Assembly: GCA_044229475.1 (NCBI GenBank)
Contig: JBGASW010000002.1
Span: 743,517 to 807,516, forward strand
Direction of reading: 5' to 3'
DNA from: Thermoanaerobaculia bacterium
GTDB lineage: Bacteria; Acidobacteriota; Thermoanaerobaculia; UBA5066
DNA: 64,000 bases
Made by a program: the position numbers and the translations under genes. Position 1 is the first letter of the stretch; every line of letters starts with the position of its first letter. The notes beneath the pieces were generated by a model. It did not search any database and was not told the DNA's origin. It saw only the letters and a program-made list of their open reading frames with translations. This document shows, piece by piece, positions 7,707 to 47,309 of this stretch.

Positions 7707-7751
7707 AAGGGAAGAGGGGCGAGCGGCGGGAGCTCCTCGGGTGGTCGTCCC

Positions 7752-9605: not shown

Positions 9606-9610
9606 GACTC

Positions 9611-9628: not shown

Positions 9629-9652
9629 CGTTCTTGGCATGCGTTTCCGTTG

Positions 9653-9680: not shown

Positions 9681-9735
9681 GTTCATAAAACAAACCGATT
9701 GTCCGGTTTTGCGGCGGGTGCCGCAGGAGGAAACG

Positions 9736-14278: not shown

Positions 14279-14291
14279 TCTGCGAGGCACC

Positions 14292-15263
14292 GTGCCGCGC
14301 GCCGCGAAGGTCCTCCTTGCCCTCGTCGCCGTCCTCCTCGTCCTCGGGGCGGCCGCGGGAGTGGTCTTCTGGAAGAGGCCCCTCGCGACGCTCGCGTGGA
14401 TCGGCCGCCGGCGCCTCCGGGCGTCCGGCTTCGAGAAGCACGTCCGGCCTTCCGCGGCCGGGCCGCAGGTCGTGTTCTCCGGCGGCGGCGGAGCGCCCGT
14501 CGTTCTCGTCCACGGCGCCGGAGACCAGGCCGGCGGCTGGTCGAAGGTGGCTCCGCGCCTCGCGAGGAGCTTCTCGGTCGTGGCCGTGGACCTCGCCGGG
14601 CACGGCGAAAGCGCGCCGGAGAGGGGTCCGCTGCCGTTCGCGACGCTCCTCGCCGGATTCGACGGCGCCATGGGGACGCTCCCGCAGGGGAAAGTCACTC
14701 TCGTCGGGAACTCCCTCGGTGCGTGGATTGCGACGGTCTGGGCGACGCGGCATCCCGACCGGGTGAGTCACCTGGTGCTCGTGAACGGCGGGCCGCTCCT
14801 CGGCGACCGCCCGGACCTCACGCTCCAGCCGAAGACGCGCGCGGAGGCGGACCGGACTCTCGCGGCTCTGCGCGACCCGTCGGCCCCGCTGGTCCCGGAC
14901 TTCGTGGTCGACGACGTCATCCGCGAGGCCGCCACGGGGCCGATCGCGCGGATCGCCGCGGAGGCGAAGGGCATGTCCGCGTACCTGCTCGACGGCAAGC
15001 TCTCGGGGCTCGACGTCCCGGTGGACCTCCTCTGGGGGGCGTCGGACAAGCTGCTGTCGGTCGACTACGCGAAGCGCCTCGCCGGCCAGCTCCCGGCCGC
15101 GCGTCTGACGACGATCGAGCGCTGCGGTCACGTGCCCGCCGTCGAGTGCCCCGACCGCTTCACGGAGGCGCTCCTGAAGATCCTCAAGGACCCTCTGCCC
15201 GAACCGACCGTCTCCTCGCCGCCGGTCGCCGCGCCCGCCGCCGCGGCGGCGCCGAAGCCGTGA
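14292..15263 (+). CDS. Alpha/beta-hydrolase fold protein (membrane-anchored)
   Basis: GTG start. N-terminal TM helix. VLVHGAGDQAGGW and nucleophile elbow GNSLGAW. C-terminal His region. Confidence 0.8.
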   Translation: MPRAAKVLLALVAVLLVLGAAAGVVFWKRPLATLAWIGRRRLRASGFEKHVRPSAAGPQVVFSGGGGAPVVLVHGAGDQAGGWSKVAPRLARSFSVVAVDLAGHGESAPERGPLPFATLLAGFDGAMGTLPQGKVTLVGNSLGAWIATVWATRHPDRVSHLVLVNGGPLLGDRPDLTLQPKTRAEADRTLAALRDPSAPLVPDFVVDDVIREAATGPIARIAAEAKGMSAYLLDGKLSGLDVPVDLLWGASDKLLSVDYAKRLAGQLPAARLTTIERCGHVPAVECPDRFTEALLKILKDPLPEPTVSSPPVAAPAAAAAPKP

Positions 15264-16891
15264 TCTCCGGCGACGTCCTCGGGGAGCGCGCGCGGCTGTC
15301 GCCGGAGAAGACCGCGCTCGTCGAGGTCGCGACGGGACGGCGCTTCACCTATGCGGAGCTGGATGCGCGCGCGAGAGGCGCGGCACGGACGCTGACCGAG
15401 GGGCTCGGCCTGAAAAAGGGCGACCGCATGGCCCTCCTCGCGGGCAATTGCGTGGAGTTCCTCGACGTCTTCTTCGCGTGCGGGAAGAACGGCGTCGTCC
15501 TCGTCCCGCTCAACACGCGCCAGACGGCGGGAGAGCTGATTGGCGTCCTCGAGGACGCAGAGCCGAAAGCGCTGATCTATGGAGCCGCGTTCGAAGAGAC
15601 CGTTGAAGATTTGCTTAGAAAGGTAAGAGGGGTAACCCCGGTTCTTCTCGACGCGCCGGCGCAGCGTGGCGCGAGGGCGGCGGGCGCGCCGAACGCCCGC
15701 ACCACCTTCAAGGAAATCTTCTCTTCTCCTCCAGCGGCGGCTCCTGCCGCCGCTGCAGAAGTCCCCTCTCCCGGCCCGGAAGATCTCTACTGCCTCCTCT
15801 ACACCTCCGGCACCACGGGCAAGCCGAAGGGCGTGATGGTGCCGCACCGGATGGTCGCGTGGAACGCGGTGAACACCGTCGTGTCGTGGCAGCTGCGCGA
15901 GGACGACGTGTCGCCGATCTACACGCCGCTGTACCACGCGGGCGGCCTCGGCGCGTTCCTGACGCCGGTCTTCGCGATCGGCGGGACGATCGTCCTCCAC
16001 GCCGGCTTCGACGCCGCGGAGGTCCTCGCGACGATCGGGAAGGAGCGCTGCACGGTGGTCCTCGGCGTGCCGACGATCTTCCGGATGCTCCAGGAGCACC
16101 CGTCGTGGGCGTCGGCCGACTTCTCCTCGGTCCGCTACTTCATCAGCGGTGGTGCGCCGCTGCCGCTCGACATCATCGAGACGTGGCACCGGCGCGGCGC
16201 GAACTTCAAGCAGGGCTACGGCCTCACCGAAGTCGGCGTGAACTGCTTCGCGATGAGCGTCGAGGAGTCCGTGCGGAAGGCCGGCTCGATCGGCAGGCCG
16301 ATGATGTTCACGGAGGCGAAGCTGACCGGCGAGGACGGGCGGGAGGTCCCGGTGGGCGAGGTCGGCGAGCTCCTCCTCAGGGGCCCGCACGTCTGCCGGG
16401 GCTACTTCCGGAATCCCGAGGCGACGGCGGCGTCGCTCGATGCCGAGGGCTGGTTCCACACGGGCGACCTCGCGAAGAAGGACGAGGACGGGTTCTTCAC
16501 GATCGCGGGCCGCAAGAAGGACATGCTGATCTCGGGCGGCGTGAACGTGTACCCGGCCGAGATCGAGGGTGTCCTCTTCCAGCATCCGCGGGTGAAGGAC
16601 GTCGCGGTCGTCGGCGTGCCCGACGAGAAGTGGGGCGAGGTCGGCGTGGCCTTCGTCGTTCGGAGGGAAGAAGGGAGAGAGGAGAAGGGAGAAGAGAAGA
16701 TTTCTTTGAAGGTAATAGGAGAGATGGCCGAACTGGCGGCCTTTGTCGAGGCGCGCCTCGCGAAGTACAAGGTTCCCCGGGAGTTCATCTTCGTCGCGAG
16801 CCTGCCCCGGACCCCCTATGGGAAAGTCGTGAAGGGTGACCTCCGCTCTCTTTACCTTTCAAAGAAATCTTCAACGAATGAAGCCCGATGA
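15260..16891 (+). CDS. Acyl-CoA synthetase / fatty-acyl-AMP ligase (AMP-binding family)
   Basis: GTG overlaps upstream stop (GTGA). AMP-binding motif YTSGTTGKPKGV, plus YGLTE and the C-terminal KYKVPREFIFVASLPRTPYGKV. Confidence 0.9.
   Translation: MISGDVLGERARLSPEKTALVEVATGRRFTYAELDARARGAARTLTEGLGLKKGDRMALLAGNCVEFLDVFFACGKNGVVLVPLNTRQTAGELIGVLEDAEPKALIYGAAFEETVEDLLRKVRGVTPVLLDAPAQRGARAAGAPNARTTFKEIFSSPPAAAPAAAAEVPSPGPEDLYCLLYTSGTTGKPKGVMVPHRMVAWNAVNTVVSWQLREDDVSPIYTPLYHAGGLGAFLTPVFAIGGTIVLHAGFDAAEVLATIGKERCTVVLGVPTIFRMLQEHPSWASADFSSVRYFISGGAPLPLDIIETWHRRGANFKQGYGLTEVGVNCFAMSVEESVRKAGSIGRPMMFTEAKLTGEDGREVPVGEVGELLLRGPHVCRGYFRNPEATAASLDAEGWFHTGDLAKKDEDGFFTIAGRKKDMLISGGVNVYPAEIEGVLFQHPRVKDVAVVGVPDEKWGEVGVAFVVRREEGREEKGEEKISLKVIGEMAELAAFVEARLAKYKVPREFIFVASLPRTPYGKVVKGDLRSLYLSKKSSTNEAR
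15605..15721. repeat. Convergent motif pair in acyl-CoA synthetase N-terminus (GAAGATTTGCTTAGAAAGG 15605-15623; CCTTCAAGGAAATCTTC 15705-15721)
   Basis: 17/19-nt near-reverse-complementary. Encodes DLLRKV and TFKEIFSS. Confidence 0.65.
16696..16882. repeat. Convergent motif pair at acyl-CoA synthetase C-terminus (GAAGATTTCTTTGAAGGTA 16696-16714; CCTTTCAAAGAAATCTTC 16865-16882), near-perfect 18-nt inverted repeat
   Basis: Arms differ by one inserted base. Encodes EKISLKVIGE and an unusual C-terminal tail LYLSKKSSTNEAR. Confidence 0.7.
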
Positions 16892-17712
16892 GCATGAGCC
16901 AGCCGCTCTTGACACATCGGGTGGACGGCGAGGGCCCCCCTCTCTTGCTCCTCAACGGCGGGATGATGTCGCTCTCGGCGTGGGAGCCGATCGCGCGGCG
17001 CTTCGCCGAGCGGCACCGCGTCATCCGCTGCGACTTCCGGGGCCAGCTCCTCTCGCCGGGCCCTCCGCGCGCGTCCATGGAAGAGCACGCGGACGACGTC
17101 GCGGCGCTCCTCGAATCCCTTTCGGTCGGACCCGTCGACGTGGTGTGCGCGTCGTACGGCGCATACGCGGGGCTCCTTCTCGCGGCGCGCCGCCCCGAAC
17201 GCGTCCGGTCGGTCGTCGCCGCGACGGTGACCGACGTCGCGAGGGAAGGAGACGCCGCGCTCGGCGAGGCCGGCGCTCGCCTGGCGGCGGCGGTTCGCGC
17301 CGCGGCTCGAGGAGGCGACCGGACGGAGGCCTACGACGCGATCGTGGAGCTCGCGTACACCCCCGAGTGGCGCGTCGCCCACGCGGACGAGCTCGCGGCG
17401 CGCCGCGGCCAGGTCGGCCTCCTGCCCGAGACGTGGTTCACGGGACTGGAGGGTCTCCTAGCGGCACTCGACAAGGTCGATCTGAGGCCGGCCCTCGGGA
17501 GGATCTCCTGTCCGGTTCTCGTCGTCGCCGCGGAACGCGACGCCGCGATGCCGCGCGAACGGACGAAAGCCGTGGCGGACGGAATCCCGGTCGCGCATTT
17601 CGTCGTCGTGCCCGGCGCGGGCCATGCTCTCGTCGTCGAACGCGAGGACGAGTTCGTCCTCCTCGTGGAGCGGTTCCTCGCGCGCGTGCACCGCTCCGGA
17701 GGAGCGGCGTGA
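16888..17712 (+). CDS. Alpha/beta-hydrolase fold protein
   Basis: ATGA overlap with the ligase gene. LLLLNGGMMS, VCASYGAYAG elbow, C-terminal PGAGHALVVE. Confidence 0.8.
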   Translation: MSMSQPLLTHRVDGEGPPLLLLNGGMMSLSAWEPIARRFAERHRVIRCDFRGQLLSPGPPRASMEEHADDVAALLESLSVGPVDVVCASYGAYAGLLLAARRPERVRSVVAATVTDVAREGDAALGEAGARLAAAVRAAARGGDRTEAYDAIVELAYTPEWRVAHADELAARRGQVGLLPETWFTGLEGLLAALDKVDLRPALGRISCPVLVVAAERDAAMPRERTKAVADGIPVAHFVVVPGAGHALVVEREDEFVLLVERFLARVHRSGGAA

Positions 17713-18575
17713 GCGCGGCCCCCCCCCCAGCGCCTCTCCGCGAGGGCCGGCTCGTCCACGGCGGGCACGGCTACCACTGGGAGCTCTACGGGGCCGGCGG
17801 CCGCGAGACCGTCTGCCTCTTCAACGGGCTCGCGATGTCCACGAAGAGCTGGCTGTCCTTCCTGCCCGAGCTGACGGGGGAGCGCGACGTCCTCCTGTAC
17901 GACTACCTCGGGCAGGGCGCGTCGGACGACGCGGAGCTGCCGGGCGCGCCGATCTCGTCCTTCGGAGACGCGCTCGCGGCGATCCTGGACGCCGAGGGGA
18001 TCTCCCGGATCCACGCGATCGGTGTTTCTTACGGCGGGTTCGTCGCCGCGGAGTTCGCGCGGCGCCACCCGGCGCGCGCGGCGTCGTTGACGCTCTCCGG
18101 CATCCTCCTGACGCAGGAGACGCTCTTCGCGATGTACCAGGACGTCTCCCTGCGGTTCTACGCGGGCGGGCCGCCCCTCTTCGACCTCTACACCCGGTAC
18201 CTCTACGAGAAGATCTTCGCGGAGGCGTTCGTCGCGCGCGCCGGACCGAAGCTCGAGTCCATGCGCCAGGGCTTCCACGACCGGTACGCGGGGCGCATCG
18301 ACGCGCTCGTGCGGCTCACGAAGGCGCAGGACCCGTTCTTCGCCGCGCTCGGGGAGAACGCGGAGTCCTACGCGGCCATCCCGTGCCGGGTCCTCGTCCT
18401 CGCGGGCGCCGAGGACCGTGCGATTCCGCCGCCCCAACAGCGGAGAATCCCGACCGTGATCCCGCATGCCGTCTACGAGGAGATTCCGGGCGCCGGGCAC
18501 GTCGTGTACCTCGAGAAGCCCGAGGTGTTCTGGCCGCGCGTGCGGCGGTTCCTGACGGGGACCGAGGCGGTCTAG
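17709..18575 (+). CDS. Alpha/beta-hydrolase fold protein. A C10 tract lies 8 nt after the start codon
   Basis: GTG overlaps upstream stop (GTGA). VCLFNGLAMS, GVSYGGFVAA elbow, PGAGHVVYLE. Confidence 0.75.
   Translation: MSAAPPPAPLREGRLVHGGHGYHWELYGAGGRETVCLFNGLAMSTKSWLSFLPELTGERDVLLYDYLGQGASDDAELPGAPISSFGDALAAILDAEGISRIHAIGVSYGGFVAAEFARRHPARAASLTLSGILLTQETLFAMYQDVSLRFYAGGPPLFDLYTRYLYEKIFAEAFVARAGPKLESMRQGFHDRYAGRIDALVRLTKAQDPFFAALGENAESYAAIPCRVLVLAGAEDRAIPPPQQRRIPTVIPHAVYEEIPGAGHVVYLEKPEVFWPRVRRFLTGTEAV
17719..17728 (+). repeat. Homopolymeric C10 tract inside the 5' end of a hydrolase CDS (potential slipped-strand phase-variation site)
   Basis: gcc ccc ccc cca read as AAPPPAP. A +/-1 change would frameshift the gene. 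Confidence 0.6.
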
Positions 18576-19228
18576 CGGCGCGCGCGGGAGAGAGGGACGG
18601 GGGCGGACGCCGCGAGCCGTTCCTCTTTCAGGACCCCGTGCCGCAGGATCTCGGCGATCTCGCGGATCACGAGGTCGCTGTCCTTGCCGAACTGCACCGG
18701 GACGCCGAAGAGGATCTCGACCGCGTAGTACTGGAGGAAGACGCGGCTCGCGAGCATGACCGCGGTCGGGACCGGCACCCCCGGCCGGATCTCGCCGGAG
18801 ACGGAGTCGCCGTGCGACACGAGGAACCGCTCGAAGCGCACGGCCATCTCGGAGTAGAACTTGCGGATGTGGTTTCCGGAGAGCTCCACGACGTCGACGT
18901 AGATGAGCGCGACGTGGCGTCTCCAGACGCGGACGCTCTCCTTGGCGGCTGCGGCCAGCTCCTCGAGGTTGTCGGGGAACGTTCCGGACGCGAGCGCCTT
19001 GTTGAACGGGAAGTCCGGGCTCTCGATCGCCTTCCAGTACTGGCCGAGGACCGTCTGGAAGATCGTCTCCTTGTCGGCGAAGTGGTGGTAGACGTTCCCC
19101 GTGGAGACTCCCGCGCGCTCCGCGATGTCGCGAATGCTCGTCCCGCGGTACCCCTGGCTCGAGAAGAGGTCCAGCGCGGCCTCGAGGATGGCCTTGCGGC
19201 TCCTCTCGGACTTCTTGTCCTGCTCCAC
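18572..19228 (-). CDS. TetR-family transcriptional regulator
   Basis: N-terminal HTH: RSRKAILEAALDLFSSQGYRGTSIRDIAERAGVSTGNVYHHFADKE. Confidence 0.9.
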   Translation of the reverse strand: MEQDKKSERSRKAILEAALDLFSSQGYRGTSIRDIAERAGVSTGNVYHHFADKETIFQTVLGQYWKAIESPDFPFNKALASGTFPDNLEELAAAAKESVRVWRRHVALIYVDVVELSGNHIRKFYSEMAVRFERFLVSHGDSVSGEIRPGVPVPTAVMLASRVFLQYYAVEILFGVPVQFGKDSDLVIREIAEILRHGVLKEERLAASAPVPLSRARR

Positions 19229-19263
19229 GCTTCGAGTCTAGACGAATGCCGCGGCGGATCCCG

Positions 19264-20574
19264 TCAGACGGCGGCGGGCGCTTCCGCGAGCATCGCCCGG
19301 AGGCGCGGGAACGCGGCCGCGATCTCGTCCATGGAGACCGCGCCCACGGACAGCCGGAACCAGCCCGTGTCGCCCTCGAAATCGAAGGCCTGGAACGGCA
19401 CGACGCCGAGGCCGGCCTCTTCGAGGAGGAGGCGCCGCACGTCGTCGTTCGTCTTCACGGGGACTCCCCTCACCGTGCGCCCGAAGAGGTCGAAGCGCAC
19501 GGAGAGGTAGATCGCCCCCTGGGGCTCGATCGCGTCGACGGGGAAGCCCTCCTTCTTCATGGACATCACGCCGTCGTACAGGGCCTCCAGCCGCTCGGCG
19601 AGCTTCTTCCGCACGCCGTCGCGATACGCGCGGACGGCCTCCGGCTGCGCGAGGAACTTCGCGACGCCGACCTGCTCAGCCTTCGGCGCCCAGGCGCCGA
19701 CGTGGCCGAGGATGTCGGACATCCGGCGGCGGATCGGCGGGGGCATGACGCCCCACCCGACGCGCATGCCGGTCGCGCAGAACGCCTTCGAGATCGCGTC
19801 GAGGAAGATGACGTACGGCGCGCTCTCGGGAACGAGCCCGACGGGCGTGTGATGCTCGGTCTTCCCGAAGACGAGGGTCCAGTAGACCTGGTCGTACACG
19901 AGGTAGAGCGGCCGCCTCCGGCCCTCCGAGTCGCGCCGGCGATTCTCCTCGACCACCATCTCCGTGAGGTCCGTCAGGGCCTGCTTCGAGATCGCCGTGC
20001 CCGTGGGGTTGAGCGGGGAGTTCAGGATCAGCAGCCGTGCGCCGGGGACGTGAGGGCGGACCTGGTCCGGCGTCGGAAAGAAGTTCGACTTCGCCTCGAC
20101 GCGGATCGGGATCCCGCGGGCGCCGGACAGGTACGCGTAGTGGTTGTTGTTCCACGACGGCACGGGATAGATCGCGCCGTCGCCCGGCTCGAGGAGCGTG
20201 CGGTAGGTGCCGTAGAGGAGCGGCCGGGCGCCGGCCGCGATCACGACGGACTCGACGGGGTACGAGAGCCCGAGGTCGCGGGCGTAGAGCTTCACGACCT
20301 CCTCGCGCAGCGGCAGGATGCCTTCCGCAGGCGGGTAGTTCGTCTGGCCCGTCTCGAGGGCGTCCTTCGTTGCGGCGAGGAGCCCGTCCGGGATGGGGAA
20401 CTGGCGCGAGTCGAAGTCGCCGATCGTGAGGTTGCAGACCGGGCGGCCCGTGGCCTGGAGCGCGCGGATCTCGCCCGCGATGCGGAGGATCTCGGAGCCG
20501 ACGACGCCGCGGGCGAGAGGGGAGAGGCCCGCGTCGGCCTTTTCCGGCGTCTGAAAGAAGGAGGTGACGTCCAT
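19264..20574 (-). CDS. PLP-dependent aminotransferase (class I/II, aspartate aminotransferase-like)
   Basis: 436 aa. SPLNPTGT motif and lysine region FLDAISKAF. Confidence 0.85.
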   Translation of the reverse strand: MDVTSFFQTPEKADAGLSPLARGVVGSEILRIAGEIRALQATGRPVCNLTIGDFDSRQFPIPDGLLAATKDALETGQTNYPPAEGILPLREEVVKLYARDLGLSYPVESVVIAAGARPLLYGTYRTLLEPGDGAIYPVPSWNNNHYAYLSGARGIPIRVEAKSNFFPTPDQVRPHVPGARLLILNSPLNPTGTAISKQALTDLTEMVVEENRRRDSEGRRRPLYLVYDQVYWTLVFGKTEHHTPVGLVPESAPYVIFLDAISKAFCATGMRVGWGVMPPPIRRRMSDILGHVGAWAPKAEQVGVAKFLAQPEAVRAYRDGVRKKLAERLEALYDGVMSMKKEGFPVDAIEPQGAIYLSVRFDLFGRTVRGVPVKTNDDVRRLLLEEAGLGVVPFQAFDFEGDTGWFRLSVGAVSMDEIAAAFPRLRAMLAEAPAAV

Positions 20575-20663
20575 CGCGTCGAGTGTATGCGATTGCGCGC
20601 CGGTGCCGCTTCGCCCTGTAAAGCACTTGACGGTCCGCGGAGACCGCGCGCAGACTCCTGGCC

Positions 20664-21251
20664 ATGGCGGCGGAAGAGACCCCGACCCTCGGCGGCCGCG
20701 CGGAGGAGGACCTCCGCTTCATCCGCGACGCGATGGGCCGGGCCGCGGCGTTCACGTGCGTCCCCGGGAAGGGCGGCGTCGCCATGGGCGCCGTCGGCGT
20801 CGCCGCCGCGGCCTGGGCGGCCCGGGCGTCGTCGACGCGTGAGTGGCTCGCGATCTGGACCGGCGCCGCCGTCCTCGCGTTCGGGATCGGAGCGTTCGGC
20901 CTCCTTCGCAAGGCCGCGCGATTCGACCATCGGCCTTCGGTCTCGGCCGCCCGTCGCTTCGTGCTCGCGCTCCTGCCGCCCCTCGTCGCGGGCGCCGCCC
21001 TCACGGCCGCGCTCGCGTCCTCGGCCGCCGTCGCCTTCCTTCCGGGGATCTGGCTGCTTCTCTACGGGTGCGCCGTCGTCGCCGCGGGACTTCTCTCGGT
21101 GCCGGTCGTTCCTCTCTTCGGAGGAGCGCTGCTCGCCCTCGGCCTCCTGGCCCTCGTCTTCCCCGCCCACGGCGACCTCCTCCTCGGGAGCGGTTTCGGC
21201 CTGGGCCACGTTGTCTGCGGCGTCATCGTCGCGCGGAGGCACGGTGGGTAG
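20664..21251 (+). CDS. Hypothetical multi-pass membrane protein
   Basis: High GC3. Four or more hydrophobic helices. Divergent from the aminotransferase. Confidence 0.5.
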   Translation: MAAEETPTLGGRAEEDLRFIRDAMGRAAAFTCVPGKGGVAMGAVGVAAAAWAARASSTREWLAIWTGAAVLAFGIGAFGLLRKAARFDHRPSVSAARRFVLALLPPLVAGAALTAALASSAAVAFLPGIWLLLYGCAVVAAGLLSVPVVPLFGGALLALGLLALVFPAHGDLLLGSGFGLGHVVCGVIVARRHGG

Positions 21252-21639: not shown

Positions 21640-23421
21640 ATGCGCTGGTCCCAGTCGTTTCTCGTGACCCTCCGGGAGGTCCCCGGCGACGCCGAGGTGG
21701 TCTCCCATCAGCTCCTCTACCGCGCGGGCTTCATCCAGAAGCTCGCCGCCGGCATCTACTCGTACACGCCGTTCGGCTTTCGCTCGCTCAGGAAGATGAT
21801 CGAGATCGTGCGCGAGGAGATGGACGCCACGGGCGCCCAGGAAGTGGACCTCCCGATCCTCCAGCCGAAGGAGCTGTGGGTCGAGTCGGGCCGCTGGGAC
21901 CGCTACCAGGCCGAGGGAATCCTCTTCCACCTCAAGGACCGCAAGGACGGCGAGTTCGCGCTCGCGCCGACCGCCGAGGAGGCCGTGACGGACATGGTCC
22001 GGCGCTCCGTGACGTCCTGGCGGCAGCTCCCGTTCAACCTGTACCAGATCCGCACGAAGTTCCGCGACGAGATCCGGCCGCGCTTCGGCCTCCTGCGCGG
22101 CCGCGAGTTCCTCATGAAGGACGCGTATTCCTTCGACCTCGACCAGAAGGGCCTCGACGCGCACTACGAGAAGATGGACGCGGCGTACCGGAAGATCTTC
22201 GACCGCTGCGGCCTCGAGTTCGCGGTCGTGCAGGCGGACTCGGGCGCGATCGGCGGCTCGGCTTCGGAAGAGTTCATGGTCGTCGCCGACACCGGCGAGG
22301 ACGCGCTCGTGTTCGCGGAAGCCGGCGATTACGGCGCGAACATCGAGAAGGCCGTGACAGCGCCGCTCCCCGAGCCGTGGGCGGGGGAGGACGCGAAGCC
22401 GTTCCAGAAGGCGGGCGCCACGACCCCGGGCATTACGACTACGGACGGCCAGGCCAAACATCTCGCGACCGAACCGGCGCGCATCGTGAACACGATGCTC
22501 TACGAAGCCGTTGGACCGGACGGCAAGGCACGGCTCGTCGCGGTTCTCATCCGCGGCGATCTCGCCATCAACGAGGTCAAGCTTCCCAAGGCGCTCGGCG
22601 CGCTTCACGTGAAGCTCGCTTCGGAGGAGATTCTTCGAAAGGTCACAGGGACGCGCCCCGGATTCGTCGGGCCGCTCGGTCTTCAACCATTCGAAGAAAA
22701 TCCGATCTCCCTCTTCGTCGACCGGTCCCTGGAGCACGGAGTCAACGTATGGTGCGGGGCAAACCTCGACGACCATCATCATGCTCAGGTGTCCATCAAG
22801 CGTGACGTCATGTCCGATCCGGCTTTTGCCGGCGTCGTCGAGGTCGCGACCGCCCGCGACGGCGATCCCTCGCCGGCGCCGAAGGGCGGCGCGCTGCGCA
22901 TCAAGCGCGGCATCGAGGTCGGGCACATCTTCAAGCTCGGCACGAAGTACTCCGAGGCCATGAAGTGCGAGGTCGCCGACCAGGCGCAGAAGATGGTGCC
23001 GCTCGCGATGGGCTGCTACGGGCTCGGCCTCGGCCGCACGATCGCGGCCGCCATCGAGCAGCACCACGACGAGCACGGCATCGTGTGGCCCGTCCCGCTC
23101 GCGCCGTACGCGTGCGTCGTCGCGGCCCTCCAGCGCGACGCCGACGTCCTCGCCGCCGCCGACAAGCTCTACGGGGACCTGAAGGCCGCCGGCGTCGAGG
23201 TGTTTTACGACGACCGCGACGAGCGGCCGGGCGTGAAGTTCAAGGACATCGACCTCATCGGCTTCCCCGTGCGGGTCGTCGTCGGCGGGAAGTCGCTCGC
23301 GAAGGGCGTCGTCGAGGTCTCGACGCGGCGCGAGAAGCAGGCGCAGGGGATCGCCCTCGCGGACGTCGTCGGCGTCGTGAAGAAGACGCTCGCCGCGGGC
23401 GCGAAGACTCTGGCCGTGTAG
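21640..23421 (+). CDS. proS: Proline--tRNA ligase (bacterial type with editing domain)
   Basis: 593 aa. Class II aaRS motifs (FRDEIRPRFGLLRGREFLMKDAYSF; GIEVGHIFKLGTKYSE; MGCYGLGLGR). C-terminal anticodon-binding domain. Confidence 0.95.
   Translation: MRWSQSFLVTLREVPGDAEVVSHQLLYRAGFIQKLAAGIYSYTPFGFRSLRKMIEIVREEMDATGAQEVDLPILQPKELWVESGRWDRYQAEGILFHLKDRKDGEFALAPTAEEAVTDMVRRSVTSWRQLPFNLYQIRTKFRDEIRPRFGLLRGREFLMKDAYSFDLDQKGLDAHYEKMDAAYRKIFDRCGLEFAVVQADSGAIGGSASEEFMVVADTGEDALVFAEAGDYGANIEKAVTAPLPEPWAGEDAKPFQKAGATTPGITTTDGQAKHLATEPARIVNTMLYEAVGPDGKARLVAVLIRGDLAINEVKLPKALGALHVKLASEEILRKVTGTRPGFVGPLGLQPFEENPISLFVDRSLEHGVNVWCGANLDDHHHAQVSIKRDVMSDPAFAGVVEVATARDGDPSPAPKGGALRIKRGIEVGHIFKLGTKYSEAMKCEVADQAQKMVPLAMGCYGLGLGRTIAAAIEQHHDEHGIVWPVPLAPYACVVAALQRDADVLAAADKLYGDLKAAGVEVFYDDRDERPGVKFKDIDLIGFPVRVVVGGKSLAKGVVEVSTRREKQAQGIALADVVGVVKKTLAAGAKTLAV
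22627..22702. repeat. Convergent motif pair inside proS (GAGATTCTTCGAAAGGTC 22627-22644; CCATTCGAAGAAAATC 22687-22702)
   Basis: Encodes EEILRKVTG and QPFEENPIS. The intervening sequence is native-looking ProS (GPGxxGPL). Confidence 0.65.
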
Positions 23422-28848: not shown

Positions 28849-28941
28849 ACATCCTCACGACCGGCTGCGGGCTCCTCGCCGCGTACTCGGCGATCCCGGC
28901 CCTCGACGCATTCCTCCGCTGGCGGCGCCTGATGGCGCCGC

Positions 28942-28953
28942 GGGGGGGGGGGG
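28942..28953. repeat. Homopolymeric G12 tract in the intergenic region upstream of the EPS glycosyltransferase operon
   Basis: Twelve consecutive G about 155 bp upstream of GT2 start 29108. Confidence 0.6.
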
Positions 28954-29053
28954 CGCGCGGCCGGAGGGCCGCGCGCCCGGGAAGCTCCTCATCGTCGTTC
29001 CCTCGCGGGCCGAGGGCGCGAGAGTCGGCGATCTTCCGGGCGATGTTCGAAGA

Positions 29054-29211
29054 GAGATTTCTTTGAAGGAGAATACGGCAGCCGCTGCCAGCGGCGCCGC
29101 GCCTGTGATGCCTCGGGTGCACGTCGACGTTCTCGTCGTTCTGGACGGCCCCGACGCCGATGCCGAGGCCCGTCTCAAAGCGGACGGCGTGGATTACCTT
29201 TCTAAGAAATC
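29054..29211. repeat. Convergent motif pair bracketing the GT2 start codon (GAGATTTCTTTGAAGG 29054-29069 upstream; CCTTTCTAAGAAATC 29197-29211 inside the CDS)
   Basis: 14/15-nt reverse complementary, about 150 bp apart, start codon 29108 in between. Confidence 0.65.
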
Positions 29212-30175
29212 TGCCGGTCCGGCGAAGGGAGACGCACTGGCGTTTCTCGCCGAGCAAATGGACGACCGGCTGGATGCCTACGATTTCATCCTCGTCTTCG
29301 ACGCCGACATGCGTTTGCCCGAGGGCTTCTTCCGCGACCTCCGCGTGCCCGGGGGGACGGAGGCGTTCCAGCTGCCGGTCCGTCCTTCGGGCGTCCCGGC
29401 GCCGGGCGCGCCGCGCGTCGAGGCGCTGTCGCTGGCCGAGGCTCGCCTCGACGACCTCGCACGCGACGCGGCGGGCCTTCCCGTGCGCCTGCGCGGCAAG
29501 GCGATGGGCTTTTCGCCGCGGGCGTTCCGCCTCGGCCCGGCGGCCGCGACGCGCACGACCGCCGAGGACTCCGAGGCGACGCTCGCGCTCCTCGCCAAGG
29601 GAATCGTCGTGCGCGCGCTGGACGGGCCAATGGCCTTCGACGAGCCGTCGTCCGACGCGGGCGCGATGGGGCGCTCCCGGGCGCGCTGGTTCGGCGGGCA
29701 CATGAAGCTGCTTTTCTCGGGTCTTGGAGATCTCGTTCGGAGCTTCGTGAGGCGGCCGGTCGGGACTCTCGTGCTGGCGGCGGATCTCTGGCTCCGTCCG
29801 AGGATCTTTCTGCTTGGGACCCTCGCGTTTCTTGCAGGCGCCTCGGATCTGGCGATGGTGGTTTTTTCTTCGAGTGGCGCGTGGTCTGCCTCGGCGCATG
29901 CAGCCGGCGGCGCCGCGGCGGCCGGGGGCGCGACTGGGGCGGCCATGCCCGTCGCGCTCCTGGTCTGCCTCCTGCTCCTTTCACTCGAAGGGAAGGCGGC
30001 CTTGCTCTTCGAGTGGCTTTCTCTCGCCGCGGTTCGCCATCGCATCGGATTCCCGGCGGAATGTCCCCCTGTTGCTCTCGCCGATCTCTCCGACTCTCTT
30101 CTCGTGTGGGCGGGCGCCGTCGTCCGCGGCGTGCTCGCACCGTCGCGGTGGCATCGCGCGAGGCCCGAGGCATGA
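29108..30175 (+). CDS. Putative family-2 glycosyltransferase with C-terminal membrane helices
   Basis: ATG 29108. VDVLVVLDG...DFILVFDADMRLPEGFF (DxD-like). Hydrophobic C-terminus. Several AT-rich motif copies inside. Confidence 0.55.
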   Translation: MPRVHVDVLVVLDGPDADAEARLKADGVDYLSKKSAGPAKGDALAFLAEQMDDRLDAYDFILVFDADMRLPEGFFRDLRVPGGTEAFQLPVRPSGVPAPGAPRVEALSLAEARLDDLARDAAGLPVRLRGKAMGFSPRAFRLGPAAATRTTAEDSEATLALLAKGIVVRALDGPMAFDEPSSDAGAMGRSRARWFGGHMKLLFSGLGDLVRSFVRRPVGTLVLAADLWLRPRIFLLGTLAFLAGASDLAMVVFSSSGAWSASAHAAGGAAAAGGATGAAMPVALLVCLLLLSLEGKAALLFEWLSLAAVRHRIGFPAECPPVALADLSDSLLVWAGAVVRGVLAPSRWHRARPEA

Positions 30176-31320
30176 AGGCCGTCCTCCTCGTCCCGCGCCT
30201 GCCGGGCACGGGCCACACGGGCGACCGCCTGCGCGCCGAGCTGCACCTCGCGGCGCTCGCGTCGGCGGGCTTCGAGACGGCCGTCGTCGGGGGAACGGAG
30301 ACGGGGGATTTCCTTCGAATGAAGAACGCGGCGGCCGTTCATCCCGTGCGGCTCCGTCGGGCCCTGATTCCTGCGGGGCTCGCGTCGGCGGTGCTTTCCG
30401 GCGAGCCGCTGCAGTCCGCGCTCTTCGCAGGACCTTTCGGCGTCGCCCTGCGCGAAGCGGCCCGTGACGCGGACCTCCTCGTCTGCGTCCTCCTCCCGCG
30501 TCTTCTCGCGCACGTGGGCCCGCTGCCGGCGATTCCGCGCGTCGTGGACTACGTCGACGCGCTCGCCGCGGCCGCGCGCCAGGCGGCGAACGACGACCCG
30601 GCTCCCTGGCGCCGCGCCTACTGGGAAGCCGAGGCGCCGCGCCTCGCACGCGCCGAGGCGCGCGCAGCCGAGGGCGCCGCCGTGCTCTTCGCGACGACGC
30701 CGTTCGACGCGGCGCATCTCCCGCGCGGAACGCGCGCCGTGGCGAACGGCGTTTCGCTCGGGCCGCTCGCGCCCGGGCCGCGAGGCCCCGTCGTGGCATT
30801 CTCGGGCCGGCTCCGGTACCGTCCGAACGTCCTCGCCGTGAAACGCCTCCTCGACGTCTGGCCCCGCGTGAGACGGGAGGAACCGGCGGCGCGCCTCGTC
30901 CTCGGAGGCGCCGACGCCCCGGCATGGCTCCTCGCGCGTTCGGGAAAGGACGGCGTCGAGGTCGTGAGCCCCGTCGCGGACATGGCCGCGTTTCTCCGGA
31001 CGGCGCGCGTGGCCGCGGCGCCCGTCGCCATGGGGACCGGCACGCCGAACAAGATCTTCGAGGCGTTCGAAGCGGGTGCCGCCGTGGTCGCGTCCCCCGA
31101 GGTCGCCGAGCGGGCCTCGGCGGGCGGCGAGGCGCCGCCGGTGAAGGTCGCGCGCACGGACGACGAGTTCGCCGAGGCTCTCGTCGCGCTTCTGACGGAC
31201 GCCGACGCCGCCTCCCGGGAGGGAGCGCGCGGCCGGGCGTGGGTCGAAGCGCACGCGGACCGCCGCGCCTCGGTGGATGCGCTCGCCGCCGGGTATCGTG
31301 ACGCGCGGGGGCACGCGTGA
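30172..31320 (+). CDS. Glycosyltransferase family 1/4 (GT-B fold)
   Basis: ATGA overlap with the GT2 gene. C-terminal ...TPNKIFEAFEAGAAVVAS is typical of GT1 donor-binding region. Confidence 0.7.
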   Translation: MKAVLLVPRLPGTGHTGDRLRAELHLAALASAGFETAVVGGTETGDFLRMKNAAAVHPVRLRRALIPAGLASAVLSGEPLQSALFAGPFGVALREAARDADLLVCVLLPRLLAHVGPLPAIPRVVDYVDALAAAARQAANDDPAPWRRAYWEAEAPRLARAEARAAEGAAVLFATTPFDAAHLPRGTRAVANGVSLGPLAPGPRGPVVAFSGRLRYRPNVLAVKRLLDVWPRVRREEPAARLVLGGADAPAWLLARSGKDGVEVVSPVADMAAFLRTARVAAAPVAMGTGTPNKIFEAFEAGAAVVASPEVAERASAGGEAPPVKVARTDDEFAEALVALLTDADAASREGARGRAWVEAHADRRASVDALAAGYRDARGHA

Positions 31321-35207: not shown

Positions 35208-36354
35208 GCCGGGCGCGGTGCGCGCGCCACGCGGCGAGCACCTTCAGGAGCAGGCCGCCGTGGGCGACACGGGAGATCTGGCTCGGGGAGAGAGCACAGA
35301 GACGGGACGCTGCGCGGCGCCCGCGACGCGGACGAGAGATGGAGGACGGGGGAAGAAGACTTTCTTTGAAGGTGAAGAGGGAAATCCGATAGCGCCTCTC
35401 GAGTACGGAATGGCGAAGCACCGCCACCGGCTCGATTGCGCTGACGTCACGCCCGGCGAGACGCTTCCACCACCTTCTAAGAGAATTTGCAGACCCGTCC
35501 CCGGCGCGCACGCGCAGCATCGGAGGGACGAGGTGGCCGGCGACCATCTCCTGATCTTCAACCAGCAGAATCTTCTTTCCTCTCTCCACGATCGCGCCGA
35601 CGAGATGAATCGTCCTGGGCGAAACGCGGGCGGCCGCCCGCGGAAACGCCTCCGGCGTCCCGCCCGCGGCCGCGCGGCAGGAGGAGCGGAGCGGGCACGC
35701 GCCGCAGCGCGGCGCGCGCGGCGTGCAGACGAGCGCTCCAATCTCCATGAGGGCCTGGTTGAAGTCGCCCGGATTCCGCGCCGGCACGAGAGGCCGGGCG
35801 ACCGCCCGGACCCTCGCGAGCGTCGCGGACGTCTTCGGGTCGAGCTTGAGCGCCTTGAGACGGCAGAGGACGCGCACGACGTTGCCGTCCACCACGGGCT
35901 CGGGGATGCCGTATGCGATCGACGCGACCGCGGCGGCCGTGTACGCGCCCACGCCGGGGAGCGCACGCCAGCCTTCGAGCGTGCGCGGAAACGCGCCCGC
36001 CGCGGCGACGGCCCTCGCGGCGCGGTGGAGGTTCCGGGCGCGCGCGTAGTACCCGAGGCCGCTCCACTCGGCGAGGACGTCGCACTCCTTCGCGCGGGCG
36101 AGCGCCTCGACGGTCGGGAAGCGCGCGCGGAAGCGTTCCCAGCGGGGCACGACGACGTCGAGCGTCGTCTGCTGCGCCATGATCTCGGAGAGCCAGATCG
36201 CGTACGGGTCGCGCGTGGAGCGCCACGGCAGGCTGCGCCGCGCCCGGCGATACCAGCGCGCGAGCCGGCGCGTCAGGTCGGCCGGGTCGTCGATCACGGG
36301 CGGGAGTCTAGACTCGGTGCGTGGACGTCGACTGGGAAGGCCTGACGGTCGCAT
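35161..36354 (-). CDS. mutY: A/G-specific adenine DNA glycosylase
   Basis: HhH-GPD region WSGLGYYARARNL. 4Fe-4S Cys cluster CTPRAPRCGACPLRSSC. C-terminal NUDIX-like domain. Alternative GTG start at 36297. Confidence 0.85.
   Translation of the reverse strand: MRPSGLPSRRPRTESRLPPVIDDPADLTRRLARWYRRARRSLPWRSTRDPYAIWLSEIMAQQTTLDVVVPRWERFRARFPTVEALARAKECDVLAEWSGLGYYARARNLHRAARAVAAAGAFPRTLEGWRALPGVGAYTAAAVASIAYGIPEPVVDGNVVRVLCRLKALKLDPKTSATLARVRAVARPLVPARNPGDFNQALMEIGALVCTPRAPRCGACPLRSSCRAAAGGTPEAFPRAAARVSPRTIHLVGAIVERGKKILLVEDQEMVAGHLVPPMLRVRAGDGSANSLRRWWKRLAGRDVSAIEPVAVLRHSVLERRYRISLFTFKESLLPPSSISRPRRGRRAASRLCALSPSQISRVAHGGLLLKVLAAWRAHRARLRREPEESVPAERRS
35355..35488. repeat. Convergent motif pair in mutY 3' region (GAAGACTTTCTTTGAAGGTG 35355-35374; CCTTCTAAGAGAATTT 35474-35488). 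A further related copy lies at 35568-35595
   Basis: On the mutY coding strand they read FTFKESLL and ANSLRRWW. Confidence 0.6.
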
Positions 36355-43656: not shown

Positions 43657-44241
43657 GTGGCGGCGAGCGGTTCCTTCTACGGGCTCCTGACGCGGCGGGT
43701 GGGCGAGGCCCGCCTTGCGGCCGCGCTCCCGCACCTGCCGAGGGGCGGCGGCGGCAGAGTCCTGGACGTGGGCTGCGGCCTGACGGATCTCGCGGCGCGG
43801 ATCCCCGACTACACCGGCGCAGACCGCAATCCCGACGTGCTCGCCGAACAGAGAGGGAGATTTCCGAAGAGAGATTTCTATGAATGGGACATCGTTCGGG
43901 GCGCGGCTCCGGCGGCGCTCTCGGCGAAAGCACCATTCGGGGGAATTCTTCTTCTGGCCGTCCTCGAACACGTTCAGGAACCCGCTTCGGTGCTCGGACG
44001 TCTCGCGCCGCTTCTCGCGCCCGGAGGCCGGTTGATCGCGACGACGCCTCATCCGAGCGGCCGCTGGCCGCTGGAGGCGGGCGCGGCGCTCGGCCTGCTC
44101 TCCTCCCACGCCCATGACGAGCACGAGACGCTCCTCGGCCGCGAGTCCCTGGAATCGGCGGGCCGCGCTTCGGGGCTGTCTCTCGTTCTCTACCGGAGGT
44201 TCCTCCTCGGCATGAACCAGCTCGCGGTCTACACACGGTGA
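43657..44241 (+). CDS. Class I SAM-dependent methyltransferase
   Basis: GTG start. Motif I VLDVGCGLTDLA. Post-I acidic region. LLLAVLEHV. Confidence 0.7.
   Translation: MAASGSFYGLLTRRVGEARLAAALPHLPRGGGGRVLDVGCGLTDLAARIPDYTGADRNPDVLAEQRGRFPKRDFYEWDIVRGAAPAALSAKAPFGGILLLAVLEHVQEPASVLGRLAPLLAPGGRLIATTPHPSGRWPLEAGAALGLLSSHAHDEHETLLGRESLESAGRASGLSLVLYRRFLLGMNQLAVYTR
43855..43951. repeat. Tandem forward copies (GGGAGATTTCCGAAGAG 43855-43871; GAGATTTCTATGAATGG 43871-43887) plus reverse copy CCATTCGGGGGAATTCTTC 43933-43951 in methyltransferase gene
   Basis: Encodes RGRFPKRDFYEWD and KAPFGGILL. Confidence 0.55.
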
Positions 44242-47200
44242 CGGCCGGCCCCCGCCTCGTCCGCCGCGGCGCGGACGCGATCCATGTCGTGAACGCCCGC
44301 ACGCACAACCTCAGGGACGTCACGTGCACGATCCCCGTGGGGGCGCTCACCGTCGTGACGGGCCCTTCGGGTTCCGGCAAGTCTTCGCTCGCGTTCGACA
44401 CGCTCTACGCCGAGGGCCAGCGTCGCTTCGTCGAGTCCATGTCCACGTACGCGCGCCAGTACCTCGAGCGGCTCGAACGTCCGGACGTGGACGAGATCAC
44501 GCACGTCCTCCCGGCGATCGCGATCGAGCAGAGGGCGCCCGCGCGCTCGGCGCGCTCGACGATCGGGTCGGCCACCGAGATCCACGACGTCCTGCGCCTC
44601 CTCTTCTCGGCCGCGGGCACGCTGCGCTGCCCGGACGACGGCAGCCCCGTGCGCCGCGAGACGGCCGAGAGCGTCCGGGCGGCTCTTCTCGAAGAGTTCG
44701 GCGAGGGCGCGCGCCTCCTCGTCGTCGCGCCTCGCAGAGTGACGTCGTTCGCGGCGGAGAGCGCGGAGTGGAGGAGGCTTGGCTTCTACCGGTACGTCGG
44801 AGCTGCGGGCGACGTTCTGGAAATAGAAGAGAAGATTTCTTCGAGTGAAAGAGAGAGGGAGAGCAGCTCGCCGCCCCGCAGGGCCGTAGCGCGTTCGAGC
44901 GCGGCGCGTCGTCCCTCTTCACCCTTCAAAGAGATCCCCTCTTCCTCCCTCTTCCCTCTGCTCATCGGCCGCCACGTACTGCGGGCTGACGATCCGGAAA
45001 TCCTCTCTTCACTTTCAACGGCCTTCGACGCCGCAGACGGATCGCTTCTCGTCTTGAAGTCCGGAGAGGGTCTTTCCTCCGCCCGCACGTTCCGCCGCGG
45101 CCTGTCGTGCAACGCGTGCGGCCGGGCGTTCGCGGACCCGGTGCCCGCGCTCTTCTCGTTCAACTCGCCGCGCGGGGCCTGCGAGACGTGCCAGGGGTTC
45201 GGGCGGATCGTCGGCATCGACGCGGCGCGCGTCATTCCCGACCCGCGCAAGACGCTGCGCGAGCGTCCGATCGCACCGTTCAACTCGCCCTCGTACGAGA
45301 GCGCGTACGACGACCTCAAGGCGGCGTCGCGCCGCCTCAAGCTGCGGTGGGACGTTCCCTGGAACGAGCTGACGCAGCGGGAGAGGGACGCCGTCTGGAC
45401 GCGCTCCGGAGATTGGTACGGCGTCGAGGGCCTCTTCGAGTACCTCGAGAAGAAGCGCTACAAGGTTCAGGTTCGCGTCATGCTCGCGCGCTACCGCGGC
45501 TACTCGACGTGCCCCGAGTGCCGCGGCGCGCGGCTGAGGCCCGAGGCGCTCGCCGTGACGGTCGGCGGAAAGACGATCGCCGAGGTCTGCGACCTGACGC
45601 TCGACGGATTCGTGGCGTTTCTCGGGGCGCTCCCGCTGCGCGAAGCCGAGCGCGAGCGGGCAGCTTCCCTCGTCGAGGAGCTGGCGCGGCGCGCGGGGAC
45701 GCTCGTCGAGATCGGCCTCGGCTACCTGACGCTCGCGCGCACGATGCGCACGCTGTCGGGCGGTGAGGCTCAGCGCGTCCAGCTCGGCTCCGCGATCGGC
45801 AACGCGCTGACCGGAACGCTCTACGTCCTCGACGAGCCGACGGTGGGCCTGCATCCGCGGGACACGCGGCGGCTCCTCGCGGTCCTCGAGAGGCTCGCGG
45901 CCGCGGGCAACGCGGTCGTGGCCGTCGAGCACGACACGGACGTCATCCGTGCGGCCGACCACGTCATCGACCTCGGCCCGGGGGCCGGCGCGCTCGGCGG
46001 GCGGCTCGTCTTCGAAGGAACGCCGGAGGAGCTGACCGAGGCGGACACCGCGACGGGAAGGTCGTTGAAGAAGGAGAAAGAGATACTTCTTGCTTCGGAC
46101 GCGGCGGGATACGGGCCGACTGTGGCGACGGACGCCGTGGCTGCGGAGACGGTGGGAGCCTTCGGCACTTTCTTTGAAGGTGGAGTGAGTGCAGGCGCGC
46201 CCGAGAGGCCGGAGGGCCGCATTCGCCCCGCCGCCCATTCACCTTCTAAGGAAAACCATCGTGACGATTCGATTCGCGTGCCACTCGAATCGATACAGGT
46301 CGTGGGTGCGCGAGCAAATAATCTCCAGAACCTCTCGGTCTCGTTTCCCTTGCGGCGGCTGGTGGCGGTGTCCGGGGTGTCGGGGTCGGGGAAATCCTCC
46401 CTCGTCGTCGACGTTCTCGCCGCGGGCGCGCGGCAGCGCATGGGCAAGGGCCTCCTGCCGGGCATCGACGCGGTGGGGGAGCACGATGGCATCTTCGGGC
46501 TCGAGCACGTTTCGGACGTCATCCTCGTCGACCAGTCGCCGCCCGGGCGCTCCTCGCGCTCGAACCCGGCGACCGTGACGAAGGCTTGGGACGAGATCCG
46601 GACGCTCCTCGCCCGGACGCCCGCCGCGAAGGCGCGCGGCCTCGAGAAGGGCGCCTTCAGCTTCAACGCGGCGGGCGGGCGGTGCGAGAGGTGCGAGGGC
46701 GCCGGCGTCGTGACCGTGGACATGCAGTTCCTCGCGGACGTGACGATCGTCTGCGACGTCTGCGACGGGCGCCGCTTCAAACCGGAGGTCCTCGAGGTGC
46801 GCCTGAGGGGCCGGAACGTCGACGAACTCCTCGCGACGACCGTCGACGAGGCGCGCCTCCTCTTCGCGGACGCGCCCGCCATCGCGAGCCGCCTCCAGCC
46901 GCTCGCCGACGCGGGGCTCGGGTACCTCACGCTCGGCCAGTCGACGGCGACGCTCTCGGGCGGAGAGGCGCAGCGGCTGAAGATCGCGACGTTCCTCCGG
47001 GGGGCCGAGGCCCCGAAGGCGCCGGTCCTGTTCGTTTTCGACGAGCCGACGACCGGCCTGGCGCCGTCCGACGTCGACGTCCTCCTCGCCGTGTTCCGCC
47101 GGCTCCTCGCGGCCGGCCATTCGATCGTCGCGGTCGAGCACAACACGGCCTTTCTCGCGCGCGCCGACCACCTGATCGAGCTGGGCCCGGACGGCGGCCC

Positions 47201-47309
47201 GGACGGCGGCCGAGTCGTCTTCGAGGGCGAGCCGGCGGCGCTCGCGGCTCGCGGCGGGACGCCGACCGCCCGAGCGCTGAAAGGACGGGTACAATTTCCG
47301 CCACGGTGA
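44238..47309 (+). CDS. uvrA: Excinuclease ABC subunit A (UvrA family) with expanded low-complexity loop and inter-domain linker
   Basis: Two ABC ATPase modules ([33 protein letters not shown]; [11 protein letters not shown]), zinc modules (CNACG...CETCQG; CERCEG...CDVCDG) and signature LSGGEAQR x2. Linker about 90 aa versus about 25 aa in E. coli UvrA. Confidence 0.85.
44820..44960. repeat. TIR-like element in uvrA: left arm GAAATAGAAGAGAAGATTTCTTCGAGTGAAAGAGAGAGGGAGAG, right arm CCTCTTCACCCTTCAAAGAGATCCCCTCTTCCTCCCTCTTCC, flanking a GC-rich core
   Basis: Arms are imperfect inverted repeats of roughly 35 nt. The segment encodes Ser/Arg/Pro-rich low-complexity peptide [40 protein letters not shown]. 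Confidence 0.6.
46074..46256. repeat. Three motif copies in the expanded uvrA inter-domain linker (GAGAAAGAGATACTTCTTGCTTCGG 46074-46098; CACTTTCTTTGAAGGTGG 46166-46183; CCTTCTAAGGAAAAC 46243-46256)
   Basis: Encode [19 protein letters not shown] and SPSKENHRD. The linker is about 65 aa longer than in E. coli UvrA. Confidence 0.6.

Follow-up and report, generated by a model that had tools for sequence, protein, structure and literature searches.

Short DNA motifs that recur throughout a bacterial genome have been described in several forms. In the REPINs, a repetitive extragenic palindromic (REP) motif of ~25 nt is doubled in inverted orientation around a spacer and is predicted to form a hairpin; the families are lineage-specific and abundant, doublets far outnumber singlets, and the copies, whose spacer is characteristic, lie outside genes and spread through insertion (PMC3116915). 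Another example is provided by the uptake signal sequences (USS) of Pasteurellaceae and the DNA uptake sequences (DUS) of Neisseriaceae, short motifs over-represented hundreds-fold, many copies of which lie in coding sequence at poorly conserved residues and skew the local peptide; these copies act singly, arise by substitution, occupy homologous positions in relatives and favour frames with preferred codons (Findlay & Redfield 2009, PMC2817400). In Rickettsia palindromic elements (RPEs) and in-frame MITEs (miniature inverted-repeat transposable elements), repeated palindromic DNA is translated within numerous unrelated proteins, for the most part in surface segments that tolerate it, and an RPE is a complete element of 100-150 bp, conserved in its interior, that is inserted relative to orthologs (PMC10969869). 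The present analysis concerns a motif family in a stretch of 64,000 nucleotides from a Thermoanaerobaculia bacterium (contig JBGASW010000002.1, positions 743,517 to 807,516; the whole stretch is called the window below), where one 14-mer encodes the peptide FLRMK in two unrelated genes.

A further group, the invertons, consists of invertible segments flanked by inverted repeats and includes intragenic cases. As argued below, the best explanation overall for the two FLRMK sites, to which a probability of roughly 70% is given, is that they are arms, arisen in place, of a lineage-specific, mostly intragenic, paired motif family. By comparison with the systems above, the motif combines REPIN-like architecture (PMC3116915) with uptake-sequence-like evolution (PMC2817400), and its function is inferred.

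Two identical 14-mers and the motif family that contains them

Only two exact copies of TTCCTTCGAATGAA are present in the window, one at 30310-30323 (+) and the other at 58877-58890 (-), and both are translated in frame as F-L-R-M-K. The first lies in an open reading frame for a GT4-type glycosyltransferase (Glyco_trans_1_4; about 30172-31320, +), and the second in one for a Zn-dependent alcohol dehydrogenase (ADH; domains ADH_N and ADH_zinc_N; 58765-59667, -). A preliminary description of this DNA had already reported one 14-mer encoding FLRMK in these two enzymes on opposite strands, which is borne out exactly; the ADH site that it placed at 58862-58885 is real but lies a few bases away, the 24-mer gaattccttcgaatgaaaagagcg being at 58870-58893. 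The flanks of the 14-mer are less alike between the two genes, with 2/3 bases equal upstream and 5/8 downstream. Shared 14-mers are in themselves frequent in the window, which is 71% GC (353 direct and 351 inverted pairs, 704 together), whereas repeated pairs with at most five G+C number 23, as opposed to a mean of 0.025 expected from Markov-2 simulations of the window. Nearly all of these AT-rich repeated 14-mers come from one motif family, and the FLRMK 14-mer itself has 5 G+C.

The motif is AT-rich and ~25-30 bp long, about GAAGAGATTTCTTNGAAGGTGAAGAGGG, in a GC-rich genome. Eighteen seed copies, which align easily, give a consensus of about AGAGAAGATTTCTT[T/A/C]GAAGGTGAAGAGGG, and 111 distinct copies from relatives yield a logo whose core, TTTCTTNGAARG, is almost invariant and has purine-rich flanks. 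A position weight matrix (PWM) of 29 columns was built from the 18 seeds, from which both FLRMK sites had been left out. For control DNA, a ProRS-based (prolyl-tRNA synthetase) genome scan gave 80 loci from metagenome-assembled genomes of Thermoanaerobaculia, Holophagales and other Acidobacteriota; the in-clade set consisted of the window and 21 loci of its own lineage (ProRS identity at least 84%, plus L079; 396 kb), and the out-clade set of the remaining Thermoanaerobaculia and Holophagales lineages (927 kb, G+C 0.61-0.74, the same GC as in-clade). PWM matches above 20 bits number 114 in the in-clade DNA and 0 in the out-clade DNA, where the best score is 18.8 bits, only one site reaches at least 18.5 and none reaches 18.9. 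The window holds 24 listed copies, called arms here, and the in-clade density is about 0.3 arms per kb over both strands.

Both 14-mers are arms of this lineage-specific dispersed DNA motif. When scored with a PWM that had never seen them, the GT4 arm at 30302-30330 (+; GDFLRMKN) reaches 21.1 bits and the ADH arm at 58870-58898 (-; EFLRMKR) 18.5 bits, and both are conserved at the orthologous position, the ADH arm in L001-L004 with identical DNA and the GT4 arm in L011, L012 and L013. For the ADH arm, a convergent partner lies 35 bp off, at 58835-58863 (+; 14.8 bits; SSEFPL on the coding strand), and the two pair in the predicted minimum-energy fold; for the GT4 arm, there is no partner within about 200 bp, nor within 300 bp. 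The reverse-type copy that had been noted beside the ADH site, cctttcgtcggaattcc, is found at 58839-58855 on the - strand, inside the partner arm, and the kinship proposed between 58838-58855 and ccattcgggggaattcttc, which starts at 43933, is correct, both being arms of the same family.

Read in one frame (xTT CTT CGA ATG AAx), the core spells FLRMK, so that the peptide is a by-product of the motif; the same frame gives EEILRK in ProRS, EDLLRK in an acyl-CoA ligase and EEILRM in GT4 relatives. A GC3-periodicity classifier for the frame and strand of arms was too strict (121/152 arms called non-coding) and was used solely to show recurrent peptides. The motif is also found in several reading frames, antisense and in intergenic DNA, and rare codons are imposed by it, which upholds the earlier proposal of a cause at the level of the DNA, as opposed to protein convergence or ordinary codon usage. 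Rfam 15, at the gathering threshold, gave no match in the window, and nothing relevant was found in the literature on Thermoanaerobaculia or Acidobacteria repeats and uptake sequences; the family appears to be undescribed so far.

Origin of the arms within existing genes

Across 120 ADH orthologs (76-99% identity) there is no indel at the FLRMK site, where the commonest reading is ELLR[TS]R[RK] or DLLASRR. Intermediate peptides occur (LLRTKR, LLRMKR, FLRTKR, FLRMRR), and EFLRMK is limited to the closest subclade. The corresponding codons are GCA CTC CTC CGA ACG CGG AAG in L007, GAA CTC CTT CGA TTG AAA AGG in L005/6, and GAA TTC CTT CGA ATG AAR AGA in the window and L001-L004 (with AAA as one form of AAR). 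At the level of aligned codons, these orthologs show a course from LLRTRK through the intermediates to FLRMK with no insertion. The partner arm (TCG GAA TTC CC) is present in every ADH ortholog examined and is therefore older than the FLRMK arm. In the latter, the rare codons CTT, CGA and AGA are kept in four independent assemblies, and adjacent synonymous sites vary.

The GT4 site is likewise without an element-sized indel across 120 orthologs. Relatives carry a more canonical arm there, GAAGAGATTCTTCGAATGGAGAATG (20.2 bits), in the codons GAA GAG ATT CTT CGA [A/G]TG GAG AAT, which are translated as EEILR[M/V]EN; the variant in the window and L011 is one codon shorter, and a relative at 68% identity has no arm. 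As read from this alignment, the site is shown to be an old arm that went from EEILR[V/M]E to DFLRMK. Judged by both sets of orthologs, it has been shown that point substitutions turned codons already present into the two FLRMK arms, in place and without insertion, and the view of a mobile or copied DNA segment at these two loci, as put forward in the preliminary description, is not supported. Nor is FLRMK ancestral in both families: in ADH it is confined to the subclade, in GT4 [IF]LR[MV] is found only in the motif-bearing lineage, and the alignment column is variable in ADH and in GT4. A structural mapping of the peptide had also been proposed, and for GT4 a confident model (pLDDT 90.9) places FLRMK (residues 46-50) in the loop that joins strands 35-41 and 52-59 and that is modelled with the lowest confidence in the region; in ADH it stands at a helix end, in a model too poor to map reliably (pLDDT 59.5, <50 around the site).

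The FLRMK 14-mer departs from the majority core at three positions, the same in both copies: C at core position 3, T at 11 and A at 13. It is also present in a third, non-orthologous arm, at 9809-9822 of L011 at the 3' end of a GT2 gene, and is absent from all out-clade DNA scanned. Since the shared minor bases recur at this third arm, a sub-variant of the motif exists, and since other arm pairs have 15-17-mers in common, it is not unusual for two arms to match exactly over a long run. As the source of the 14/14 identity, the stepwise ADH intermediates favour convergence on one motif sub-variant (TTCCTTCGAATGAA).

Arms without insertion are also seen in ProRS, where pair D (22622-22650, +, SEEILRKVTG, 18.4 bits; 22679-22707, -, QPFEENPIS, 25.7 bits) is kept with its rare codons in about 19 in-clade orthologs. 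Out-clade orthologs are of equal length with a homologous interior (GCKPGFIGPIGL vs GTRPGFVGPLGL), and at the arm positions they read PEEWLPEIAG...RPRKGQDEV in GC-rich codons, as opposed to SEEILRKVTG...QPFEENPIS in the lineage. In 19 orthologs, 140/151 codons (93%) of the nine arm columns end in A or T (ATT, CTT, CGA/AGA, CCA/CCT, GAA, AAT), whereas gene-wide these codons account for 3-18% of their families; the arm Arg is always CGA or AGA, so that only the free N position of the motif varies. Synonymous-codon entropy (0.70 in the ProRS arms vs 0.66 in the rest) is uninformative because codon bias is extreme everywhere, and the signal lies in which codons are fixed, not in their variability. 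Arms keep their positions between lineages whose proteins are 75-96% identical, and Pfam domains run as single unbroken stretches across pairs B, C and K.

UvrA (44262-47306) provides the exception. Its orthologs at 64-88% identity are 930-1056 aa long, and the length variation between the arms of pair G (44828-44942) amounts to 0-60 residues of low-complexity sequence, rich in Ser/Glu/Arg/Pro and differing from one close relative to the next. Duplicated arm-like units (EKISS) are present in some versions, and out-clade proteins have a short LEISSKGETEVDASGRV loop. Pair G is the only pair with an inserted, variable interior.

A separate observation concerns gene calling at the GT4 site. In the orthologs P0163, P0165, P0168, P0211 and P0215, at least two of which are on long contigs, the called start falls at the Met/Val that matches the M of FLRMK, and the N-terminal 48 residues are cut off.

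Pairing of the arms, and the arms of the window

Among neighbouring arms no more than 300 bp apart and above 14 bits, 57 are convergent (+ then -), 0 divergent and 5 tandem, and ~80% of arms are in convergent pairs. Their spacing is 35-190 bp, with no favoured value except for 57 bp, the spacing of the ProRS pair, which was sampled repeatedly, and the inter-arm sequences are unrelated between pairs. The arms form the closing stem of the predicted minimum-energy fold in 7/7 pairs tried (z-scores -0.9 to -3.3), and arms agree at slightly more of the 29 positions within a pair (16.8) than between pairs (15.4; p=0.02). On comparison with described systems, a fixed polarity (57:0) is not needed by a simple stem and is typical of protein-recognised terminal repeats and REPINs.

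This is like the REPINs in that inverted doublets with hairpin-capable spacers prevail, as opposed to the REPIN habit of extragenic location, shared spacer length or sequence and new copies made by insertion, none of which was found: the arms are mostly intragenic, with variable spacing, native coding interiors and an in-place origin, and a single arm is not palindromic beyond TTC..GAA. Like uptake sequences, the motif is over-represented on both strands across the clade, and the ADH, GT4 and ProRS alignments place its origin by substitution at poorly conserved residues. Uptake sequences act singly, whereas these arms form convergent pairs and impose rare codons ending in A or T on a genome of 71% GC. 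While whole RPEs are conserved between copies and missing from orthologs, only the ~28-bp arms are in common here, and ADH, GT4 and ProRS carry no insertion. The arms resemble those of invertons as consensus-sharing inverted repeats around short segments, some of them intragenic; unlike invertons, their interiors are collinear in all 246 genuine matches between genomes, and some are 35-57 bp, too short to invert, and encode essential conserved ProRS residues. No genuine inverted interior was found among 31 in-clade sequences (the window and 30 loci), since all 12 reverse-strand interior matches lie in a fold-back duplicate of L011. In this locus, at 13700-21152 near the contig end, fragments of ProRS, malic enzyme/PTA and Bac_transf are repeated in reverse beside intact copies, which looks like a fold-back assembly artefact.

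Most arms of the window lie inside genes, the hosts of these intragenic arms being ADH, GT4, ProRS (pair D), UvrA (G, H), an AMP-binding ligase (B, C), a GT2_3 glycosyltransferase (E), an HhH-GPD glycosylase (F) and a methyltransferase (K). Pair A, both arms of which are seeds, is at 5954-5982 (+, 34.8 bits) and 6117-6145 (-, 33.3 bits). Another seed, at 7691-7719 (+, 34.7 bits), lies about 35 nt upstream of the start of a TPR-protein gene, and its partner was not found. Upstream of a CarboxypepD_reg/TonB-type outer membrane protein gene, a 110-bp AT-rich stretch (9602-9711) contains TTGACA-N17-TATAGA, and a weak arm of uncertain membership (9657-9685, +, 17.4 bits) lies over the spacer of this sigma-70-like promoter; the signal-peptide region of this gene has an arm at 9754-9782 (-, 24.3 bits). 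Pair B has its left arm at 15603-15631 (+, 31.7 bits), inside the AMP-binding domain, whose Pfam match is unbroken across the site, and its right arm at 15696-15724 (-, 30.3 bits). The left arm of pair C, in AMP-binding_C (16693-16721, +, 41.3 bits), has a 17-mer in common with 44824, and the right arm is directly ahead of the stop codon (16847-16875, -, 38.5 bits).

In the GT2_3 gene, pair E occupies 29050-29078 (+, 36.7 bits) and 29189-29217 (-, 26.3 bits; GVDYLSKKS), with orthologous arms in L011, L012, L014 and L015. The 3' end of the GT2 gene holds a degenerate convergent pair at 29857-30003, TTTTTTCTTCGAGTGG (+) and TCCCTTCGAGTGAA (-), which is below threshold in the window; its L011 orthologue scores 18.3 and 23.6 bits, and the - arm there bears the exact FLRMK 14-mer. 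A poly-G tract in the same region (28937-28949) is G12 in the window and G7 in L009, which is of the same strain and 99.96% identical; with G7, the Glyco_trans_2_3 gene (28850-30175) is intact and encodes 441 aa, with G12 its frame is shifted, and two further contigs of the strain begin immediately after the tract. Either the homopolymer was misassembled, or an exopolysaccharide glycosyltransferase undergoes slipped-strand phase variation here.

Pair F is in the C-terminal part of the HhH-GPD gene, at 35353-35381 (+, 37.0 bits) and 35464-35492 (-, 29.6 bits), and is kept in L012 and L014. In the methyltransferase gene, the left arm of pair K (43867-43895, +, 22.2 bits) faces a weak partner of only 8.0 bits (43925-43953, -), which holds ccattcgggggaattcttc and has GAATTCC..CGAATG in common with the ADH arm. 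UvrA contains pair G, at 44828-44856 (+, 31.2 bits; EEKISSSE) and 44914-44942 (-, 33.4 bits), and pair H, with the left arm in the inter-domain linker at 46161-46189 (+, 26.0 bits) and the right arm, an TTCCTTAGAAGG variant, at 46233-46261 (-, 29.3 bits). Just upstream of pair H, the same linker has an AT- and purine-rich patch, AAGGTCGTTGAAGAAGGAGAAAGAGATACTTCTTGCTTCGGAC (46058-46100), of only 8-10 bits.

Competing explanations and a proposed mechanism

Several points weigh against the reading of both FLRMK sites as arms of a paired family that arose in place. Seed arms score high by construction, and the 114 in-clade matches are not 114 independent sites, since the in-clade loci are mostly syntenic. 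The ADH arm is a weak member, with 18.5 bits and GAATTCC in place of GATTTC. Pairing is not universal, and the single GT4 arm means that a pair is not obligatory. No compensatory changes between arms were found in 19 predicted pairs across 20 ProRS orthologs (consensus energy -4.1 kcal/mol), where one-arm changes such as CTTAGAA opposite TTCGAAG, and TTCGCAGAA, are unmatched. Finally, three shared departures from the majority core are unlikely under an independent-site model; a sub-family of the motif, or one-step short-patch copying between arms, may account for the identity of the ADH and GT4 14-mers.

Pure coincidence, in which two AT-rich patches share 14 bases and their resemblance to the motif is incidental, gains something from the 704 shared 14-mer pairs of the window, from the choice of this 14-mer after the fact, from the little identity beyond it and from the closeness of the ADH score (18.5) to the out-clade best (18.8). 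It was nevertheless already disfavoured and is improbable, because the excess of AT-rich repeated 14-mers is made up almost entirely of family members, both sites are in the top tail of a PWM built without them, the ADH partner is correctly oriented, the GT4 arm is canonical in relatives and L011 carries the same 14-mer in a third arm. The idea of a peptide that is convergent or functionally selected, for which the in-frame position of both copies in tolerant segments (the GT4 loop and, in a low-confidence model, the ADH helix end) might be cited, is effectively refuted by the highly variable column in both families, by the occurrence of the DNA motif in other frames, antisense and in intergenic DNA, and by the conservation of rare codons. 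There is little likelihood, too, that a short mobile element or copy-pasted segment was inserted or converted into both genes. Inverted arms of fixed polarity do recall transposon terminal repeats or REPINs (PMC3116915), the UvrA interior is a variable-length low-complexity insert missing from out-clade orthologs, within-pair arms are slightly more alike (p=0.02), and one-step short-patch conversion could explain the three minor-variant bases common to both 14-mers. However, the ADH, GT4 and ProRS sites are without length change, their interiors are native coding sequence, ADH has stepwise intermediates, and the pairs have unrelated interiors, inconstant spacing and positions conserved at 75-96% protein identity.

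Two further explanations accept the motif and differ as to what it does. One is a DNA-uptake-type signal whose arms act singly and accumulate by mutation with biased uptake and recombination (molecular drive). The clade-specific, dense occurrence on both strands, mostly in genes at poorly conserved residues, the origin by point substitution and the homologous positions in relatives have all been described for USS/DUS (PMC2817400), and the unpaired GT4 arm is conserved; this explanation is still unlikely, since exclusive convergent pairing (57:0) is foreign to uptake sequences, and USS/DUS favour preferred-codon frames (PMC2817400), as opposed to the rare codons forced by these arms. The other is an RNA-level role, with a long-range mRNA stem as a processing, stability or translation signal, to which the closing stems in 7/7 predicted folds and the slightly raised within-pair similarity lend some weight. 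It is considered quite improbable in view of the 0/19 predicted pairs with a compensatory change, the consensus of -4.1 kcal/mol, the unmatched one-arm changes and the lack of an Rfam match, and because a plain stem needs neither fixed polarity nor conserved sequence. Spliceosomal-like GT..AG boundaries, Shine-Dalgarno mimicry, type IIS/III restriction sites, sigma-70 promoters and known regulator boxes were dropped as they had no fitting sequence features.

Under the preferred reading of a paired, in-place family, the functional unit would usually be two facing arms of fixed polarity, with the GGTGAAGAGGG side inward and 35-190 bp apart, able to pair as the closing stem of a hairpin. The arms might be recognised by a putative clade-specific protein, as duplex sites or as a stem in single-stranded DNA or RNA, a proposal that stands at slightly less than even odds. 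The resulting architecture would resemble REPINs or terminal inverted repeats and would be kept in place via selection or biased conversion; unlike REPINs, copies would arise and persist within genes through directional substitution or short-patch conversion, as in DNA uptake sequences, with the coding sequence bent to fit the arms. More tentatively, and with the balance tilted against it, the arms could have been left by a genome-wide system, so far undescribed, of one Thermoanaerobaculia lineage, in which a putative protein recognises inward-facing pairs of ~28-bp signals and writes the signal into essential genes. Candidates for such a protein would be a domesticated transposase, a RAYT-like enzyme (REP-associated tyrosine transposase) or an uptake receptor; biased short-patch conversion or uptake-driven fixation would write the signal in place, recode protein segments and leave indel-prone inter-arm loops, giving an intragenic element with REPIN architecture and uptake-sequence dynamics.

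The motif is a sharp lineage marker, with 0 false matches in 0.9 Mb of sister-lineage DNA, and it calls for caution, since identical short peptides or oligomers that unrelated genes share in these genomes are by-products of the motif, not evidence of transfer. Since the architecture of mobile REPINs (paired, polar, hairpin-capable) is joined here to uptake-like evolution (in-place origin, positional conservation), the family offers a test of selfish vs driven vs selected motifs. If it is as it seems, a DNA-level signal overrides codon bias and amino-acid choice in housekeeping genes such as ProRS and UvrA throughout a whole uncultured lineage.

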